Shown here: piece after piece, positions 13,615 to 18,964 of the stretch
Position numbering within the stretch: position 1 is the first letter of the stretch
Layout: each line of letters starts with the position of its first letter
Virus record (IMG/VR): IMGVR_UViG_3300045988_159500
Coordinates: 1 to 36,104 of that record
Length of the DNA: 36,104 bases
Direction: 5' to 3' (one strand)
Origin: a virus
Translations under genes and position numbers: made by a program
The notes under the pieces: generated by a model
What the model saw: the letters and a program-made list of their open reading frames with translations, nothing else
Databases searched by the model: none
Told to the model about the DNA's origin: nothing

Positions 13615-14022
13615 ATGAAAGGAATAGAAAGAATAAAAATATTATCATCTGATATAAAAGATGAACAATTAAAATCAATTATTGATTATTTATTATCAAG
13701 AACTGATATGAACGATAAGTACTTAAATGAAGAAAAGAGTTTATCTCAAATGATAAAATTCATAATGAGAGAAGCAAATGAAAAACTAAAAAAAGTATCT
13801 ATAAGTGGTGGTAGTGTAGCATATGCAACTGATGAGATGGTATTTAGTTGGGCAATACATTATTGGGATGAATCTAATTCTAATTTGAACTTAGATAATA
13901 AAAAAGTAGAGAAAGAAGAAAAAGAAACTAATAGTCCGGTTATAAGTGGATCAAATAAACAAAAAACGGACAAAAAAGAAAAGTGGGTATCAGAAGGGCA
14001 ATTAACTTTGTTTGATATGTAA
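13615..14022 (+). CDS. Hypothetical protein with C-terminal QLTLF (beta-clamp-binding-like) motif
   Basis: 135 aa. The C-terminus ...EGQLTLFDM matches the QL[SDT]LF sliding-clamp-binding consensus. Confidence 0.45.
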   Translation: MKGIERIKILSSDIKDEQLKSIIDYLLSRTDMNDKYLNEEKSLSQMIKFIMREANEKLKKVSISGGSVAYATDEMVFSWAIHYWDESNSNLNLDNKKVEKEEKETNSPVISGSNKQKTDKKEKWVSEGQLTLFDM

Positions 14023-15448
14023 TATGTATATTAAAGTAAAAGATAGAAAATTATTTAAAGAATTAGATGAAAATCTTACAATACCTGAAAAATGGCGAGA
14101 ATTTGTAAAAGAAAAAAGTAAAAATCACAATTTAATTTTAAAATCAAAGAACGAGTATTATTGTACATGTTGTAAAACTACATTTAAAGCCGATTATAGC
14201 ATTAATTCGTATTGTAAGTGTAATTATTGTAAAAGAGAATTTTTAGTTAAATCGGCAAGAATTAAGACTTATGCATTTAAAGATTACTTATGTATATTTG
14301 ATAGATATAAAAACTATTATATTGAAAGAGTATTTCAATTAAAAACCGAGTATAACAGTGGTAATTTGAATAGTGAAATATGCGAATTTGGAAGAACAAT
14401 TTATGATGATGCATTTATGCAGGTAGAAAGAATTGTAAATGAAAATTGTGTAAGTACTCCATCTGGGACATGGATAAGAAAGAATAATACAACTTTTGAT
14501 TATAAATGGAGGTATCCATCTTATTACAATCCACTACATTATATAGATGAGTTTATATATTATCCATATAACATAAAGAGTATAATTGGAACAATAGAAA
14601 AATACAAATATAGTCAAATATGGACATTATTAGAACATGTTGACTATTGTGATTTGATTTATTTGTTAAAATGTTATAACCCAAGTGTAGAATTACTAAC
14701 AAAGATGAAAATGTATAATCTAGCATTAAACCCTAAAACTTTTCAAAAAAAGAGGACATTTCGGGACAGGTTTTATGGATTATCAAAAGATTATTTCCCG
14801 TTTATTGTTGAAAACAATTTAACATTAGATGAATTAGAGATATTATCAGTAATTAAAGATAGAAATATCGAAGATATAAGTAAAATAGTAAAATTATATA
14901 ATTATAAAGATTTATCTAAATACATTGATTTACAAAAAGCAATTAAAATAAAAAACTTAAATGCAAATAATACAAGCGAATATTATGATTATTTGAAAAT
15001 GGCTAAAACTTTAGGTTTAGATTTGAAAGATAAGCAAATTGCATATCCAAAAAATATAAAAGAGGCACATGATAAAATATTAGAACAATATAACATAAGT
15101 AAAAATAAAATAATATCTAAGAAAATATTTAAAATCGCTAAAAACATAAAAACAAGTGAATATCAAGATAATAAATATGTAATATTTCCGGCAAAATCGT
15201 ACGAAGATTTAGTTGAAGAATCGAAACAACAAAATAATTGTGTAAGAACTTATGCCGAAAGAATAGTTGAAGGCGAGTGTTATATATACTTTATGAGAAA
15301 ACTATCAGATCTAAATAAATCATTAGTTACAGTAGAAGTTAGAGATAATACAGTAGTTCAAAAAAGAACAAAGAACAATGAGATAACGACTAAAGAACAA
15401 GATAAATTCTTGAAAAAGTGGGAGTTATTAAAACTTAAAAATGGTTAG
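14012..15448 (+). CDS. Large Cys-rich hypothetical protein (possible PcfJ-like)
   Basis: 478 aa. N-terminal zinc-finger-like cluster YYCTCCK...CKCNYCK. The rest is alpha-rich. The ATG at 14024 is an alternative start to the TTG at 14012. Confidence 0.5.
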   Translation: MICNMYIKVKDRKLFKELDENLTIPEKWREFVKEKSKNHNLILKSKNEYYCTCCKTTFKADYSINSYCKCNYCKREFLVKSARIKTYAFKDYLCIFDRYKNYYIERVFQLKTEYNSGNLNSEICEFGRTIYDDAFMQVERIVNENCVSTPSGTWIRKNNTTFDYKWRYPSYYNPLHYIDEFIYYPYNIKSIIGTIEKYKYSQIWTLLEHVDYCDLIYLLKCYNPSVELLTKMKMYNLALNPKTFQKKRTFRDRFYGLSKDYFPFIVENNLTLDELEILSVIKDRNIEDISKIVKLYNYKDLSKYIDLQKAIKIKNLNANNTSEYYDYLKMAKTLGLDLKDKQIAYPKNIKEAHDKILEQYNISKNKIISKKIFKIAKNIKTSEYQDNKYVIFPAKSYEDLVEESKQQNNCVRTYAERIVEGECYIYFMRKLSDLNKSLVTVEVRDNTVVQKRTKNNEITTKEQDKFLKKWELLKLKNG

Positions 15449-15738: not shown

Positions 15739-16143
15739 GTGGAAGATAAAGAACTAATTACTATAAAAGAATTAAAATATAAAATTAAAGAAATAGAAGA
15801 TGATTTAGAATTATATTTAAAATTAAAACAAATAGAATTTACAAAAACACAGCCACAAGGGACAAGTTATGAAAACGAACGTGTAAATGGGAAGTTTGTT
15901 TTTGATAAATTTACGCACTATGTGATTAAGTCTGAAAAATATGATAGTAAAATTACTGAATTAGTAGATTCACTATTAGCATACGAAAAAAGATTAAACA
16001 AAAAGATAAAGAATATATGTAATGCCGATTTAAAAGCATTTATAACATATTTAAGAGAAGAAGAAAAATATGATTGGGAGAAAATAGCAAGAACAACAAA
16101 CTATTCGTTAAGGCAAGTCAAACGAATTTATGGTGGTAAATAG
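15739..16143 (+). CDS. ArpU/RinA-family phage late transcriptional activator
   Basis: 134 aa. C-terminal sigma-region-4-like HTH (DWEKIARTTNYSLRQVKRIY). Canonical position immediately upstream of the packaging module. Confidence 0.55.
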   Translation: MEDKELITIKELKYKIKEIEDDLELYLKLKQIEFTKTQPQGTSYENERVNGKFVFDKFTHYVIKSEKYDSKITELVDSLLAYEKRLNKKIKNICNADLKAFITYLREEEKYDWEKIARTTNYSLRQVKRIYGGK

Positions 16144-16147
16144 CAAG

Positions 16148-16167
16148 ATGGCACGAAATGGCACGAA
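16148..16167 (+). promoter_or_regulatory. Perfect tandem 10-mer ATGGCACGAA x2, candidate binding site for the late activator
   Basis: Read directly from the sequence. Lies 5 bp upstream of an extended -10 (TGtTATAAT, 16173-16181). Confidence 0.45.
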
Positions 16168-16172
16168 TTAGA

Positions 16173-16181
16173 TGTTATAAT
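16173..16181 (+). promoter_or_regulatory. Extended -10 promoter element (TGtTATAAT), putative late promoter
   Basis: TGnTATAAT match with no good -35. This fits an activator-dependent promoter. Confidence 0.4.
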
Positions 16182-16189
16182 ATGTATAA

Positions 16190-16560
16190 TAAGATAACTA
16201 TATAGAAATCTCATTAACTCACCTTTATAAAATTTTTAAAAGCACTACTTTAATAGTAGTGTACTGATGATATAAAGTCTTAAAGAACCGATGCCTGGTG
16301 TGGTTTAGGGTGCTGGTAAGTATCATTAGTACAGTGCTATTGAAGCACTTGTTTTTGCCATAGGTTTCGCTATGCTTTGTAGGTAGCATATTGAGTAAAT
16401 ATGTAATAAGCGGAGTTCGATTCTCCAAACGACAAGACCGTCCTTGGTGGTTGTATTTACTTGATATGGTGCTTATTATAGGCACAACACTGTAACGTTT
16501 GATTTTAATTGCGTTACTTCCTTTCTAGATATAAGAAGACAATCTAAGCAGGTTGTCTTT
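16190..16560 (+). ncRNA. ORF-free structured leader / candidate non-coding RNA
   Basis: No ORF of 30 codons or more. Hairpins at 16242-16262, 16488-16520 and others. Hairpin 16333-16349 (AGTGCT/AGCACT) followed by TTGTTTTTG. Tight terminator 16532-16560 (AAGACAA/TTGTCTT plus T5). T-arm-like GGAGTTCGATTCTCC at 16412-16426. Confidence 0.3.
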
Positions 16561-16639
16561 TTAATATATAAAAAGTTTTAGTTTTGTGTCATTTTAAATG
16601 GTGAAAAATACAGTGCCTTACAAGGAGTAGTGATATTGA

Positions 16640-16714
16640 TGAAAGTAATTATTTTTATATTAGTAGTAGCATGGGCAATAGCTTCTTTTATTATTGCTAA
16701 CGAGAAAAGATAAA
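16640..16714 (+). CDS. 24-codon hydrophobic peptide (MKVIIFILVVAWAIASFIIANEKR), type-I-toxin-like or small membrane peptide
   Basis: AGGAG lies 11 nt upstream of the ATG, or 8 nt upstream of a TTG at 16637. The peptide has a single TM helix and a charged C-terminal tail. Confidence 0.3.
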
Positions 16715-16727
16715 TTTGATAAATAAA

Positions 16728-16801
16728 AGTGGGATAGTGTAATGGTAACATATTGGTTTCAGATGCCAAAGTAAAAGGTTCAATTCCTTTTCCCACAACC
16801 A
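16728..16801 (+). tRNA. tRNA-like gene, anticodon CAG (Leu codon CUG) with a short variable loop; atypical
   Basis: Manual fold: 6-bp acceptor stem plus an A1-A72 mismatch. D-arm GTGT/ACAT with loop AATGGTA (G18 G19). Anticodon stem TTGGT/GCCAA with loop TTCAGAT. 4-nt variable loop. T-arm AAAGG/CCTTT with loop TTCAATT. Discriminator A, then an encoded CCA. Confidence 0.45.
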
Positions 16802-16823
16802 AATATATGAAAGGAGTGAAAAT

Positions 16824-16988
16824 ATGGTAGAAGTAGAAGTATTAATTCCAAACTTTAAAGATAAAGAAAACAAACAATTAGGATTATTACAACCAGGTTA
16901 TAAATACTCTATATCTAAAGAAAGATATGTTGAATTATCAAAAAAAGGAATAGTGAAGATGTTCAAAAAAGAAAAAGATGAGAAATAG
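16824..16988 (+). CDS. Small hypothetical protein (54 aa)
   Basis: Strong AAAGGAGTGAAA RBS. Not in the ORF track. Confidence 0.45.
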   Translation: MVEVEVLIPNFKDKENKQLGLLQPGYKYSISKERYVELSKKGIVKMFKKEKDEK

Positions 16989-17002
16989 GAAGGTGATAGA
17001 TT

Positions 17003-17215
17003 ATGAATTTAAATAAATTTATAAATATATCACTTTTAAAATTATCAAAAAAATATAAAATTACAATAGTTGAGATAACGGTTGCAAAAGAAGAAAAAAT
17101 AAGTAGAACATATTCAGTTAGTTATTATGAGTTGGAAGACGCTGAGCAAGAAACAATAAAAGAAACATTTTATAACAAAAGAAGTTTGGCAAGGTGGTTA
17201 ATGTGTCTAAAGTAA
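17003..17215 (+). CDS. Hypothetical protein
   Basis: 70 aa with a GGAAGGTGA RBS. Confidence 0.4.
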   Translation: MNLNKFINISLLKLSKKYKITIVEITVAKEEKISRTYSVSYYELEDAEQETIKETFYNKRSLARWLMCLK

Positions 17216-17628
17216 GAAAGATAAAATTAACTGATAAACAAAAGAAACAAATAATTGCTGATTATGTAGACTGTAATAATTATTCGGAAGTTGCAAGAAA
17301 ACACAAGATATCTGATACAACAGTTAGAAAATTAGTTAAGTCAGATGAGGACTGTTTGAAAAAACTTGAACAAAAAAAAGAAGAAAATACTCAAGATGTA
17401 CTTGAATATATGGATTCACTCAAAGAAAGAAAAAAGTTAATTGTTGATAAATTATTAAAAGCAATAGAAGAAAAAGCAGAAAATTTGGATAGTTTTACTA
17501 ACATTAAGGATGTTGCTAGTGCATATGGAATAATCATAGATAAAGAATTAAAAATAAAAGAATTAAGAAAACAAAATAGTTCTGATGATACTGGAGTAAC
17601 AATTATAAATGATTTGCCAAAAGAATAA
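17194..17628 (+). CDS. terS: Terminase small subunit
   Basis: 144 aa. N-terminal HTH (NYSEVARKHKISDTTVRKLV). Directly upstream of and overlapping terL. Confidence 0.55.
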   Translation: MVNVSKVRKIKLTDKQKKQIIADYVDCNNYSEVARKHKISDTTVRKLVKSDEDCLKKLEQKKEENTQDVLEYMDSLKERKKLIVDKLLKAIEEKAENLDSFTNIKDVASAYGIIIDKELKIKELRKQNSSDDTGVTIINDLPKE

Positions 17629-18964
17629 CATTGTTAAGATAAGAGATTTGATAATTCCAAAGTATTGGCAAAATTTCAACGATATAAAACATACTCATCA
17701 AATATATACCAGTGGTCGTGCTGGAACGAAGTCATCTCGTGGTGGCATAAGAGAAATATACAGAATAATACAAAATAAACCCGGCTCTGTAGTTGTTATG
17801 CGTAAATTTCATAATAAGTTGAAGAAAACAGTATTTAACGAGTGTAAAAGAGCAATCAAGAGATTAAAATTGCCTTTAAAGAATTTCAAAATAACAGTAA
17901 GCCCTATGCAAATCACATACTTGCCAACTGGTAATACTATTTATTTTACAGGTAATGATAGTATAGATGATACAAAAGGTATGATAGATGAAGACAAACC
18001 TATTGTTTTAGTTGTACTGGATGAATTAACTGAGTTTTTTGATAAAGGTGATGGTGAGGATGAACTGCAAAATATAGAAGCAACATTTATTCGTGGTAAT
18101 GATGAAGAGTTTGTGATGGAATATTATTTTAATCCCCCTAAAAATCCAAAAGCGCCTATTATGGAGTGGCTCAACAAGATGAAGTTAAGGGAAGATTGTA
18201 TACATGTACACACTGATTATAGAGATGTCCCAGAAGAATGGCTAGGAAAAAAATTAATTGAATCTGCAAGAATATTAGAAAAACTAGATCCTAAAATGTA
18301 TAAATGGTTATGGTTAGGTTTATGCATTGGAATAGATGAATTAATTTATTATATGTTTAGTGAGGAAAAACATATTAAAGAGTGTACTGAAGATAATTTC
18401 AAAAATATGAAAAATTTGTTTATTGGTGTTGACTATGGACAAATGAATGCAACAACATATCAGGCATTTGGTATTGATTATAAGGACAAATGCATACGAG
18501 GTGTTGATGAATATTATTATTCAGGTAGAGATACAGGAAAACAAAGGTCACCAAGCGAATATGCACAAGATTTTAAATCGTTTAAAGAGAAAATTGAAAA
18601 AGAGAGTGGTTTAAAAGTCTTATATGTATTCATAGACCCATCTGCAAAAGGACTACAAGAGGAAATAAGAAGAATATGTCCTGATGTGATTATTAAGGAT
18701 GCAAAAAACGATGTTGCTCTTGGAATATCAAGGGTACAAAAAATGCTCTCTTATATGAGAGTTTTTATTTCGCCTAAACAAGAACATTTAACACAAGAAA
18801 TGTTTATGTATAGTTATGATAAAGATTTGCTAGATAAAGGAAAAGAAGTACCTGTAAAACAAAATGACCATTGTGAAGATGCATTTAGATATTTAATAAT
18901 GGGAATTTGGAAATTTATTAAAATTATACTTCCAATGATTGAAGGTGATAAAGATGATGAATAA
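17609..18964 (+). CDS. terL: Terminase large subunit
   Basis: 451 aa. Walker A-like GRAGTKSS and Walker B LVVLDELTEF. C-terminal nuclease-region acidic residues (GVDYGQ ... DHCEDAFRY). Confidence 0.85.
   Translation: MICQKNNIVKIRDLIIPKYWQNFNDIKHTHQIYTSGRAGTKSSRGGIREIYRIIQNKPGSVVVMRKFHNKLKKTVFNECKRAIKRLKLPLKNFKITVSPMQITYLPTGNTIYFTGNDSIDDTKGMIDEDKPIVLVVLDELTEFFDKGDGEDELQNIEATFIRGNDEEFVMEYYFNPPKNPKAPIMEWLNKMKLREDCIHVHTDYRDVPEEWLGKKLIESARILEKLDPKMYKWLWLGLCIGIDELIYYMFSEEKHIKECTEDNFKNMKNLFIGVDYGQMNATTYQAFGIDYKDKCIRGVDEYYYSGRDTGKQRSPSEYAQDFKSFKEKIEKESGLKVLYVFIDPSAKGLQEEIRRICPDVIIKDAKNDVALGISRVQKMLSYMRVFISPKQEHLTQEMFMYSYDKDLLDKGKEVPVKQNDHCEDAFRYLIMGIWKFIKIILPMIEGDKDDE

Follow-up and report, generated by a model that had tools for sequence, protein, structure and literature searches.

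In the viral record IMGVR_UViG_3300045988_159500, taken here over its whole stretch of 36,104 nucleotides (nt; hereafter the window), the interval 16144-16823 separates the gene of a 134-amino-acid (aa) late regulator from the packaging genes of a phage. We find that this interval is probably, if with modest assurance for its anatomy and logic taken jointly, the switch region and 5' non-coding leader of the late operon in a gut phage. The middle of the leader consists of two copies of one RNA module, an apparently undescribed arrangement in which a near-constant adaptor surrounds an exchangeable insert, or cargo.

The interval begins 1 nt past the stop codon (16141-16143) of the 134-aa open reading frame (ORF) and ends 1 nt ahead of a 54-aa ORF, after which come a 70-aa ORF, the gene of a helix-turn-helix (HTH)-type small terminase (terS, 17194-17628) and that of a Terminase_3 large subunit (terL, 17609-18964). 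The window has a G+C content of 27%. An earlier description made from the letters alone (the sequence-only reading) had held the interval to contain no ORF longer than 25 codons; mechanically, it contains ORFs of 34 aa on the + strand and of 86, 74 and 58 aa on the - strand, and every ORF in the same region of the relative L002 is of 37 aa or less (loci used for comparison are cited by L numbers). Folding of 16180-16565 beats all shuffles (z = -4.75). That reading had also suggested a covariance-model search; with the Rfam 15 models at gathering threshold, a tRNA is the sole match in the window, the leader (16180-16565) matches no family, and on 15900-17100 at E up to 10 the top match other than the tRNA reaches 20 bits against a gathering score of 60. 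Nothing like this region was found among GenBank phages. The elements of the leader's middle part, which the sequence-only reading did not recognize as modules, are as follows.

16243-16261, + strand: left hairpin of module 1, CACUACU / AGUAGUG (from sequence and comparison)
16262-16331, + strand: long stem of module 1, with type A arms UACUGAUGAUAU (16262-16273) and GUAUCAUUAGUA (16320-16331) around cargo 1 (16274-16319)
16333-16349, + strand: right hairpin of module 1, AGUGCU / AGCACU (-7.2 kcal/mol, z = -1.7)
16369-16387, + strand: left hairpin of module 2, GCUAU ... AGGUAGC (from sequence)
16388-16467, + strand: long stem of module 2, with type B arms AUAUUGAGUAAAUA (16388-16401) and UAUUUACUUGAUAU (16454-16467), including tandem U.G/G.U pairs, around cargo 2 (16402-16453)
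16412-16426, + strand: T-arm-like hairpin GGAG-UUCGAUU-CUCC within cargo 2, GGAGTTCGATTCTCC (compensatory change in L183)
16469-16485, + strand: right hairpin of module 2, GUGCUU / AGGCAC (from sequence)

Each module is thus a short hairpin, a 12-14-bp stem rich in G.U pairs and a second short hairpin, and each long stem encloses a different cargo of ~50 nt. The left hairpin has the consensus CACUAYCU-loop-AGGUAGUG and is followed within 0-1 nt by the 5' arm; the right hairpin has the consensus AGURYYU-loop-AGRYACU. Both modules fold stably (module 1, -40.1 kcal/mol, z = -4.3; module 2, -37.3 kcal/mol, z = -3.3). An alternative pairing, between the left hairpin's 3' strand and the 5' strand of its right-hand counterpart, would give an extended stem of ~25 bp, the form preferred by minimum-energy folding. 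A third arm type, type C (CAUAGAGYRGAUA / UAUCYRUUCUAUG), occurs in relatives. Two features that the sequence-only reading had picked out dissolve into this architecture. Its first terminator, at 16333-16356, is the weak right hairpin of module 1, and the T-run past that hairpin (UGUUUUU after 16333-16349) is TTT in L003-L006 and absent from most other module copies. Its imperfect direct repeat at 16288 and 16437 spans 16287-16300 and 16437-16449 and falls in two unrelated cargos, with no evidence of a repeated element. We also considered a hammerhead ribozyme, as the type A arm contains CUGAUGA, and rejected it: Rfam (E up to 10) gives no hammerhead match, and the CUGAUGA, which lacks a following GAAA, has all its bases paired with AUCAUUAG.

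How closely are the modules tied to the late promoter? The number of modules per leader runs from 0 to 5, and the cargo varies among phages with near-identical regulators. In L046-L051 the leader, of ~100 nt, consists of operator, -10, a 5'-terminal hairpin (P1) and terminator only, carries no modules and precedes an HNH gene; the promoter/terminator switch can thus do without the middle part. Modules are also found away from late promoters and far from terminase genes, beside tRNAs and the large non-coding RNA ROOL. These observations bear on the reading that the whole element is a purely cis-acting Q-type antitermination leader, in which both modules serve the loading or modification of polymerase and have no function in trans. 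Such a leader would account well for a terminator that always stands between the regulated promoter and the late genes, for a regulator gene directly upstream of its own site, and for a second -10-like hexamer beside the start site, which recalls the established pause sites of lambdoid pR'. It does not readily account for a module-free leader serving the same regulator family, for module number and cargo that differ under near-identical regulators, for modules off late promoters, or for a regulator that resembles no Q protein, and we regard it as unlikely. The sequence-only reading had offered a Q-type leader or a processed structured RNA. Its read-through logic is plausible and its processed RNA comes close to the comparative picture; its two terminators reduce to one, the regulator resembles no solved Q protein, and the modules are dispensable for the switch.

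Substitutions in the arms bear on the nature of the modules. With the left arm held fixed, 114 distinct copies show 39 positions at which the right arm departs from consensus; 37 of these keep the pair and 2 break it. All 37 pair-keeping changes make U.G or G-C, and none makes A.C, though 5 of the 11 positions allow it by one transition. Where the left arm changes from G to A, the right arm has the matching U in 16 of 16 cases. Over the 114 copies G.U pairs outnumber A.C by 147 to 0, although here the copies were preselected for pairing, and the right-arm test (37/39) is less biased. The right hairpin covaries, with 6.10 of 7 pairs formed against 5.69 when partners are permuted (none of 500 permutations reaches the observed value); the left hairpin is nearly invariant, keeping at least 7 of 8 pairs in 95% of the 114 copies. 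Modules are predominantly intergenic (103 of 111), and 108 of 111 are co-oriented with the flanking ORFs and none opposed. Pair-keeping substitutions together with strict co-orientation argue that the module is selected as sense-strand RNA and not as duplex DNA, and by this comparison the adaptor is shown to work as an RNA structure.

The same evidence weighs on a simpler reading, that an activator-dependent promoter has been joined by selfish DNA, the modules being miniature inverted-repeat insertions in a permissive spot and their RNA structure a by-product. Imperfect inverted repeats of ~35 nt around variable inserts, a variable copy number, differing module positions and the lack of an assignable function for any cargo are what one would expect of such insertions. 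A fixed orientation with transcription, arm changes that keep sense-strand pairs without a single A.C, and compensatory changes within the cargos are not. By eye, moreover, no target-site duplication lies beside the modules (no formal test was made), no transposase family is enriched nearby, and the interior is hypervariable, whereas copies of miniature inverted-repeat transposable elements have a common interior. We judge this reading decidedly improbable.

Modules are widespread. The type A left arm (a 19-mer with one degenerate position) occurs in 114 IMG/VR stretches and the type B arm in 38, the module altogether in more than 150; the exact type A 20-mer occurs in more than 120 metagenome contigs, a lower bound, some of them labelled human gut; and all searches together give more than 270 stretches with modules, likewise a lower bound. 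A blastn search with the leaders found ~20 real copies in metagenome-assembled genomes (MAGs), labelled uncultured Bacilli, Tenericutes, Erysipelotrichaceae, Clostridia and Ruminococcaceae; about 100 of 120 genome-contig matches to a degenerate 17-mer are chance. GenBank phages contain no copy of the consensus module, a search of 8 million full texts for the module sequences gave no match, and Rfam found only tRNAs and one ROOL in 26 related loci (11 + 15), none of them at modules. The recurring neighbours are an Ltr-like regulator upstream and terS, terL and portal genes downstream, and a tRNA gene lies no more than 400 nt from 20 of 111 modules.

It is the cargos that vary most. Type A arms enclose 173 distinct interiors of 16-297 nt (median 88), which form 100 sequence families, 68 of them singletons; type B arms add 34 further distinct interiors. 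Since 28 of the 100 type A families came from metagenome loci alone, the cargo pool appears far from fully sampled. No empty adaptor was found, the shortest cargo being 16 nt between arms defined by regular expression and 26-34 nt in a search for short inserts. Apparent cargos of more than 300 nt were rejected, all being chance pattern matches in unrelated genomes. Members of one cargo family turn up in different adaptors and at different positions. The window and L001 carry the family of cargo 1 between type A arms; L031, L295 and L306 have it between type B arms, and L125 and L145 within other stems. A 93-nt cargo found in module 2 of L001 is the cargo of module 1 in L003-L006 and is flanked by type B arms in L302 and L303. 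Cargos, as comparison of these loci shows, are swapped among adaptors and phages and reassort freely.

Within cargos, too, structure appears to be maintained. Cargo 1 contains a covarying stem of 5-6 bp (CUGGU/GCUGG, CUAGU/GCUAG, CUAGU/ACUAG, CUGAC/GUCAG, UCUUGC/GCAAGA) closed by a conserved loop GUUUAGGGU; this stem was read off the sequences directly, and RNAalifold, run on six homologues in an alignment shifted by indels, found no compensatory pair. The homologue of cargo 2 in L183, which lies in type A arms, changes the stem GGAG/CUCC to GAAG/CUUC, and the adjoining AACGACAAGACCGUCC(U/G)UGGUGG is conserved. No cargo in the 26 scanned loci matches an Rfam family, and a search for antisense targets of the window's two cargos within the phage gave a longest complementarity of 9 nt, which is chance level. 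Some cargos are recognizable. Of 64 distinct tRNA sequences, one alone is sited as cargo: the tRNA-Trp(CCA) gene of L249 (6226-6390), complete and with its CCA encoded, which type A arms enclose. In L119, L158, L207, L250, L355, L369, L370 and L374, type A arms enclose six variants of one cargo that encodes a protein of ~80 aa, with the motif MI(V/L)K...LMN(D/N)(E/K)GKTIE(R/K)L(V/I), a weak match to phrog_9473 and no Pfam domain; adaptors can therefore flank coding sequence too.

The T-arm-like hairpin noted by the sequence-only reading is present, as part of a swappable cargo and not as a device specific to this leader. Such hairpins are enriched among 121 type A cargos, 7 of which have one where shuffling would predict 0.135, and with the complete tRNA in L249 and the frequency of tRNA genes as neighbours they could suggest that the leader is a decayed array of tRNA pseudogenes or tRNA-like decoys. 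Yet they occur in just ~6% of cargos, cargo 1 has no tRNA-like feature, the adaptor hairpins lack D-loop and T-loop sequences, and ARAGORN and Rfam (E up to 10) find no tRNA or transfer-messenger RNA in 16180-16565, so that this origin seems very unlikely. The idea that the palindromic modules are pac/cos-type packaging sites or recombinase substrates acting as DNA can be set aside almost entirely: the modules do lie immediately upstream of terS and terL, and a 288-aa tyrosine recombinase is encoded directly upstream of the regulator in L023-L032 and L043-L045, but unrelated terminase types follow the same modules, a neighbouring recombinase is missing from the window and from many other loci, modules near tRNAs and ROOL are far from terminase genes, and the G.U-only pattern with strict co-orientation indicates a transcript and not duplex DNA.

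The RNA adaptors stand within a switch whose other elements, in order along the window, are these.

15739-16143, + strand: gene of the late regulator, Ltr-like, 134 aa, with a long N-terminal helix and a C-terminal three-helix HTH (from the ORF list and an AlphaFold2 model)
16148-16167, no strand assigned: tandem 10-mer ATGGCACGAA x2, putative binding site of the regulator, 4 nt past its stop codon
16173-16181, + strand: extended -10 TGtTATAAT, without a -35 hexamer (from sequence)
16185-16190, + strand: second -10-like hexamer TATAAT, 3 nt past the first and overlapping the predicted +1 (~16188)
16188-16215, + strand: P1, the 5'-terminal hairpin of the leader, beginning within the second hexamer (compensatory changes in relatives)
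16218-16228, + strand: C-rich single-stranded motif CUCACCUUUAU (from sequence)
16492-16517, + strand: hairpin GUAACG-14 nt-CGUUAC, then UUCCUUUCU (-6.9 kcal/mol, z = -3.5)
16532-16562, + strand: intrinsic terminator, in which the 3' strand of a 14-bp hairpin continues into U5 (-14.7 kcal/mol, z = -5.6), at the end of the leader

The regulator is the last gene before the packaging module, in the window and in its relatives. In its AlphaFold2 model (pLDDT 78) two long helices, the first of them N-terminal, are separated by a small beta element, and three short helices form the C-terminal end. The family is rare, with 16 clusters among 5.8 billion proteins, and lacks a Pfam domain; a protein-based search of species genomes found no member, and an alignment-based scan of viral contigs gave no additions. 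In none of 13 homologues do the ArpU, DUF1492 or Sigma70_r4 models of Pfam and NCBIfam match above threshold, and LtrB likewise gives no match. Weak matches are to phrog_36 'transcriptional regulator' (E = 0.008), to HTH_19 (5.7e-5, three members) and to an ECF-sigma model (0.0066, two members). A sequence profile search of the PDB gave nothing relevant, and Foldseek against the PDB reached a best E of 0.47, which is not significant, with no Q protein and a weak list made up mostly of sigma region 4 and ECF sigma factors. By sequence, the regulator is outside the ArpU family, contrary to the label of ArpU-like activator that it had been given, the weak phrog_36 match apart.

The tandem 10-mer, correctly described in the sequence-only reading, is unique within the window, is reproduced in 0 of 100 shuffles and is accompanied by no further perfect half-site in the window, pointing to a single operator. 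We fetched 40 loci encoding homologues of the regulator for comparison. In all of them except L052, whose homologue (P0015) is C-terminally divergent and which lacks the common leader layout, a tandem repeat of ~10 nt is found at the regulator's stop codon or shortly past it, immediately so in most loci and at a distance of ~25 nt in L046-L051. The repeat and the C-terminal helix residues S-x-RQ-x-(K/R) change jointly, in four classes:

Helix S-L-RQ-(V/A)-K, repeat core TGGCACG: window; L023-L032 and L044-L045 (overall identity just 63-64%)
Helix S-E-RQAR, repeat core TGTCCG: L002-L006 (overall identity 92%); L046-L051
Helix S-I-RQAR, repeat core TGTCCC: L033-L042
Helix S-D-RQAR, repeat core TG(G/A)CCG: L007-L010

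As these classes cut across overall identity, repeat specificity tracks the helix and not general relatedness. Binding at direct repeats after the gene's own stop codon, with specificity set by C-terminal residues, has been shown experimentally for regulators of the Ltr/RinA/ArpU kind (PMC3753634). From an operator that co-varies with the HTH and a layout as in the proven Ltr sites, we infer that the regulator very probably binds the tandem repeat. In function and layout, so far as sequence comparison can tell, operator and promoter are a further member of the known Ltr late-regulator kind.

Downstream of the operator the order of elements is shared by the unique leader variants after this regulator family whose contig extends far enough: the repeats, 4-6 nt, an extended -10, 2-3 nt, the hexamer TAT(A/C)AT, P1 starting inside that hexamer, a variable middle, an intrinsic terminator and the first late gene with its Shine-Dalgarno (SD) sequence. 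The extended -10 without -35, which the sequence-only reading had reported accurately, is kept as TGnTATAAT, TGnTATTAT or TGnTTAAAAT in all relatives. The second hexamer and P1, which it overlooked, are conserved too. The hexamer is an invariant TAT(A/C)AT in all leaders after this family's regulator, and by spacing it straddles +1, from about -3 to +3; it may be a sigma-dependent pause element or an alternative -10. A regular expression for a double -10 matched 41 times over 141 upstream regions against 34 expected, not above chance, and we restrict the double -10 claim to leaders in which the regulator's stop codon and the repeats are both seen. The P1 stem takes the forms GAGAT/ATCTC, GAGTA/TACTC, GAGCAA/TTGCTC and GGAATAA/TTATTCC among relatives.

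Both P1 and the terminator are present in every unique leader variant after this regulator family, including the module-free minimal one, across leader lengths (predicted start to terminator) of ~100 to 854 nt; the window's leader has 375 nt (~16188-16562). The terminator, whose hairpin and T5 had been placed at 16532-16560 by the sequence-only reading, thus stands, with slightly wider bounds. It is missing from the list of a simple pattern scan, which does contain the hairpin at 16333-16357. Its core ..CAAYC..GGUUG with a U-run recurs in 16 of 16 module-bearing unique leaders of the family, and the L046-type minimal leader has AGAGAA..UUCUCU followed by U7. The hairpin at 16492-16517 is preserved in L001 and L005 by wobble-compatible changes. 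The same element order is found in MAG prophages with unrelated regulators (L089, L099, L112, L116, L142).

Several smaller features accompany these leaders. Motifs like (A/C)CCCUUU stand ahead of the first module in L003, L068, L071, L112, L116, L125 and L155. More generally, C- and U-rich single-stranded motifs (CUCACCUUU, CCCCUUU, UUCCUUUCU; 16218-16228 and 16518-16526 in the window) that resemble the 3' end of 16S rRNA precede the first module, and in the window also the terminator. Between terminator and peptide gene, 5-45 nt past the leader terminator, L007-L010, L023-L025 and L033 carry a second inverted repeat, AUUCCGA-N(18-24)-UCGGAAU, which the window's branch lacks. We rejected a boxA-type antitermination signal: despite an rrn boxA-like sequence beside the ROOL copy in L156, boxA-like words number 29 sense against 47 antisense in 1.2 Mb, 4 of them near modules, with no enrichment on the module strand.

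Taken together, these elements suggest the following mechanism. The 134-aa Ltr-type regulator would bind the two 10-bp direct repeats, which occupy the -35 position of the extended -10 promoter, as co-variation indicates. Transcription from ~16188 would yield a non-coding leader of ~375 nt, its start and ends being predictions, that finishes at the 16532-16562 terminator. Polymerase from the regulator-controlled promoter would then read through this terminator into the peptide gene, the tRNA, terS and terL, either in a Q-like manner or because the terminator is partly leaky, and the same terminator may also halt early transcription arriving through the regulator gene. In this scheme P1 and the terminator alone form the core switch, and the leader carries its two adaptor copies between them. 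The long stem, up to ~25 bp, would act as a double-strand-specific processing and stabilizing stalk, probably cut by RNase III, as rRNA precursors are, so that cargos could be released as stable trans-acting small RNAs. Because the regulated promoter is always separated from the late genes by a terminator, and a program scan finds no + strand sigma-70-type promoter-like site between the terminator (16562) and 17186 of the window, read-through or antitermination is plausible; dependence of that read-through on the regulator we hold tentatively, at rather less than even odds, and RNase III as the processing enzyme with less confidence again. A stalk-like helix around a folded RNA, and tRNAs or ROOL at equivalent places, lead us to propose the leader as a small-RNA expression platform.

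Those equivalent places are instructive. L023 and L024 carry a tRNA-Gln within the leader, right before the terminator. In L156 (1263-3316, MAG contig UQZY01000030, - strand) a ROOL RNA (RF03087, 151 bits) has a tRNA-Gln on one side and two modules, one of type C and one of type A, on the other; together with two further tRNAs these form a single co-oriented array. Around the ROOL stands a perfect 28-nt inverted repeat, TTAATGTTCTTTGACAATTTGTTAAATA, the 5' copy of which is similar to the boxA of Firmicute rrn.

The switch has a parallel in staphylococcal phage 80alpha, whose rinA-terS spacer (L314, 1422-1607) has the layout of the minimal module-free leaders: TGGCAGT repeats, TAAAAT and TATTAT hexamers, a hairpin GATAGT..ACTATC, a C-rich stretch, and at 1536-1559 a terminator of a 10-bp G+C-rich hairpin then T6, with the terS start codon 48 nt on. 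In phi11 and 80alpha, 5' RACE put the RinA-dependent 5' end past the terminator, 23 bp ahead of the terS ATG; its authors argued for a true start and noted that a separation from the RinA site exceeding 155 bp is unexplained (PMC3152322). That 5' end fits a promoter past the terminator better than read-through and is the main counter-evidence to the mechanism proposed above.

Other points also weigh against it. Start site, 3' end, processing and read-through are all predictions, and with an extended -10 of this quality the promoter may work without an activator. The window's own P1, weakened by a G-to-A change that leaves an A.C mismatch, folds at just -2 kcal/mol. Between the regulator and Q proteins no similarity could be detected, and the regulator's fold matches to sigma region 4 are not significant. 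As to the modules, the three-hairpin form and the extended 25-bp helix both fit all natural variants, the left arm being almost invariant; no nuclease, RNA-processing or RNA-binding protein family is enriched near them; and a few cargos are small ORFs, so that trans-acting small RNA cannot describe every cargo.

The nearest known system is the Ltr switch (RinA, ArpU, LtrA-C; phages 80alpha, phi11, phiFL2A). Shared with it are a small regulator gene last before the packaging module, repeats after its stop codon, C-terminal residues that set repeat specificity and a terminator in the regulator-terS spacer (PMC3753634, PMC3152322); the element order of the 80alpha spacer is that of the minimal leaders among the window's relatives. 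Unlike its members, the window's protein matches no family hidden Markov model, its leader of 375 nt (to 854 nt in relatives) carries RNA modules where 80alpha has none, and the published model places the promoter past the terminator. The lambdoid pR'/Q unit (6S RNA; StxS) also has its regulator gene directly upstream, a protein site abutting a strong -10 promoter, a -10-like hexamer near +1 and a short non-coding transcript terminated ahead of the late genes, as we predict here. In Stx phages such a short terminated late-promoter RNA, the StxS small RNA, acts in trans (PMC7547250). The Q families, though, have no likeness to the regulator in sequence or fold, the second hexamer lies at about -3 to +3 in our leaders and not within the transcript, and the leader is long, modular and variable.

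Parallels to the modules themselves are looser. ROOL (RF03087) and GOLLD (RF01998) are likewise phage-borne, highly structured non-coding RNAs that cluster with tRNAs, and one ROOL lies in the module array of L156; neither model matches in the window, and both are single large conserved folds, whereas the modules are a small constant adaptor around a hypervariable interior. Double-stranded processing stalks are familiar from the leader-trailer helices of rRNA operons, the RNase III sites of T7 and the hairpins of Correia elements in Neisseria; in these, sequences flanking a functional RNA pair into a long helix that RNase III can cleave, defining stable ends. Known stalks serve one cargo, whereas here two or three near-invariant stalks, of predicted cleavage, serve ~100 unrelated cargos. 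The PeSL cassettes of T4-type phages place conserved short regulatory repeats around variable inserts in a hyperplastic region, an arrangement that would favour recombination shuffling, and are units of promoter and stem-loop flanking protein genes; the units described here, by contrast, lie within one transcript, pair mutually and enclose mostly non-coding RNA. With no counterpart found in Rfam 15, GenBank phages or the full-text literature, adaptor-with-cargo RNA is apparently undescribed.

Two genes follow the terminator within the interval, both of which the sequence-only reading had recognized.

16639-16713, + strand: gene of a single-helix membrane peptide, 24 codons (MKVIIFILVVAWAIASFIIANEKR), with ATG at 16639 and the SD sequence AAGGAG at 16622
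16728-16801, + strand: tRNA gene, anticodon CAG, 74 nt (ARAGORN; Rfam RF00005, 59.1 bits), with an A1.A72 mismatch and encoded CCA

The hydrophobic peptide matches nothing in a PHROG search; most relatives have a small transmembrane peptide gene at the same site (50 aa in L004-L006, 39 aa in L007 and L023), and it is missing from L010 and L034-L036. Bacterial tRNA-Leu has a class II shape with a long variable arm. The tRNA(CAG), whose anticodon corresponds to the Leu codon CUG, is by contrast of class I shape, with a 4-nt variable region and no long variable arm, and may therefore carry either leucine or another amino acid. The phages' own tRNA-Leu(UAA) genes are of 82-87 nt. Variants of tRNA(CAG) comprise ten sequences of 74-75 nt with a conserved N1.A72 mismatch, A73 and encoded CCA; relatives occur in L004-L006, L014, L034-L036, L173, L232 and L254, and L015 has a sibling with the same body and the anticodon CAA. 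The body resembles the phages' tRNA-Gln(UUG). In the long ORFs of the window CTG is rare, with 8 of 731 Leu codons.

Between the tRNA and terS (16824-17215), the 54-aa and 70-aa ORFs have no family match, and the pair is kept in otherwise differing phages (L004-L006, L034-L039, L155). Upstream of the regulator (14012-15448) the window encodes a 478-aa PcfJ-like protein and a 77-aa ORF; in the same place L023-L032 and L043-L045 have a tyrosine recombinase (PF00589) of 285-288 aa, whose gene ends 1-2 nt ahead of the regulator gene or, in L043-L045, runs 13 nt into it. Downstream of near-identical regulator-leader units stand no fewer than four unrelated terminase modules and, in one case, a glycosyltransferase gene (L002, L007, L008, L033, L037). 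The unit therefore moves between phage backbones as a cassette.

What would this mean for the phages that carry it? It is conceivable, though on the two counts jointly we think it doubtful, that gut Firmicutes phages own a 'plug-in' RNA system and, besides, that proteins of the Ltr/RinA/ArpU kind act through read-through of a terminator. If so, adaptor stalks of two or three near-constant kinds, transcribed in the late leader and in tRNA/ROOL islands, would display and process a quickly exchanged, open-ended repertoire of small structured RNAs, including a tRNA and a small protein gene, whose cargos might serve, for example, as decoys or regulators in conflicts between phage and host or between phages. 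Read-through from a repeat-proximal promoter would likewise explain the gap of more than 155 bp between RinA site and 5' end in phi11 and 80alpha; the RinA puzzle, a regulator bound far upstream and across a terminator, could then be recast as a choice between regulator-dependent read-through and a second promoter. If the modules are what they appear to be, the adaptor would be a natural scaffold for RNA expression in Firmicutes, and its sequence a handle for finding more of what may be ~100 new candidate families of functional RNA, in a large class of RNA elements that phages of human and animal gut viromes carry.

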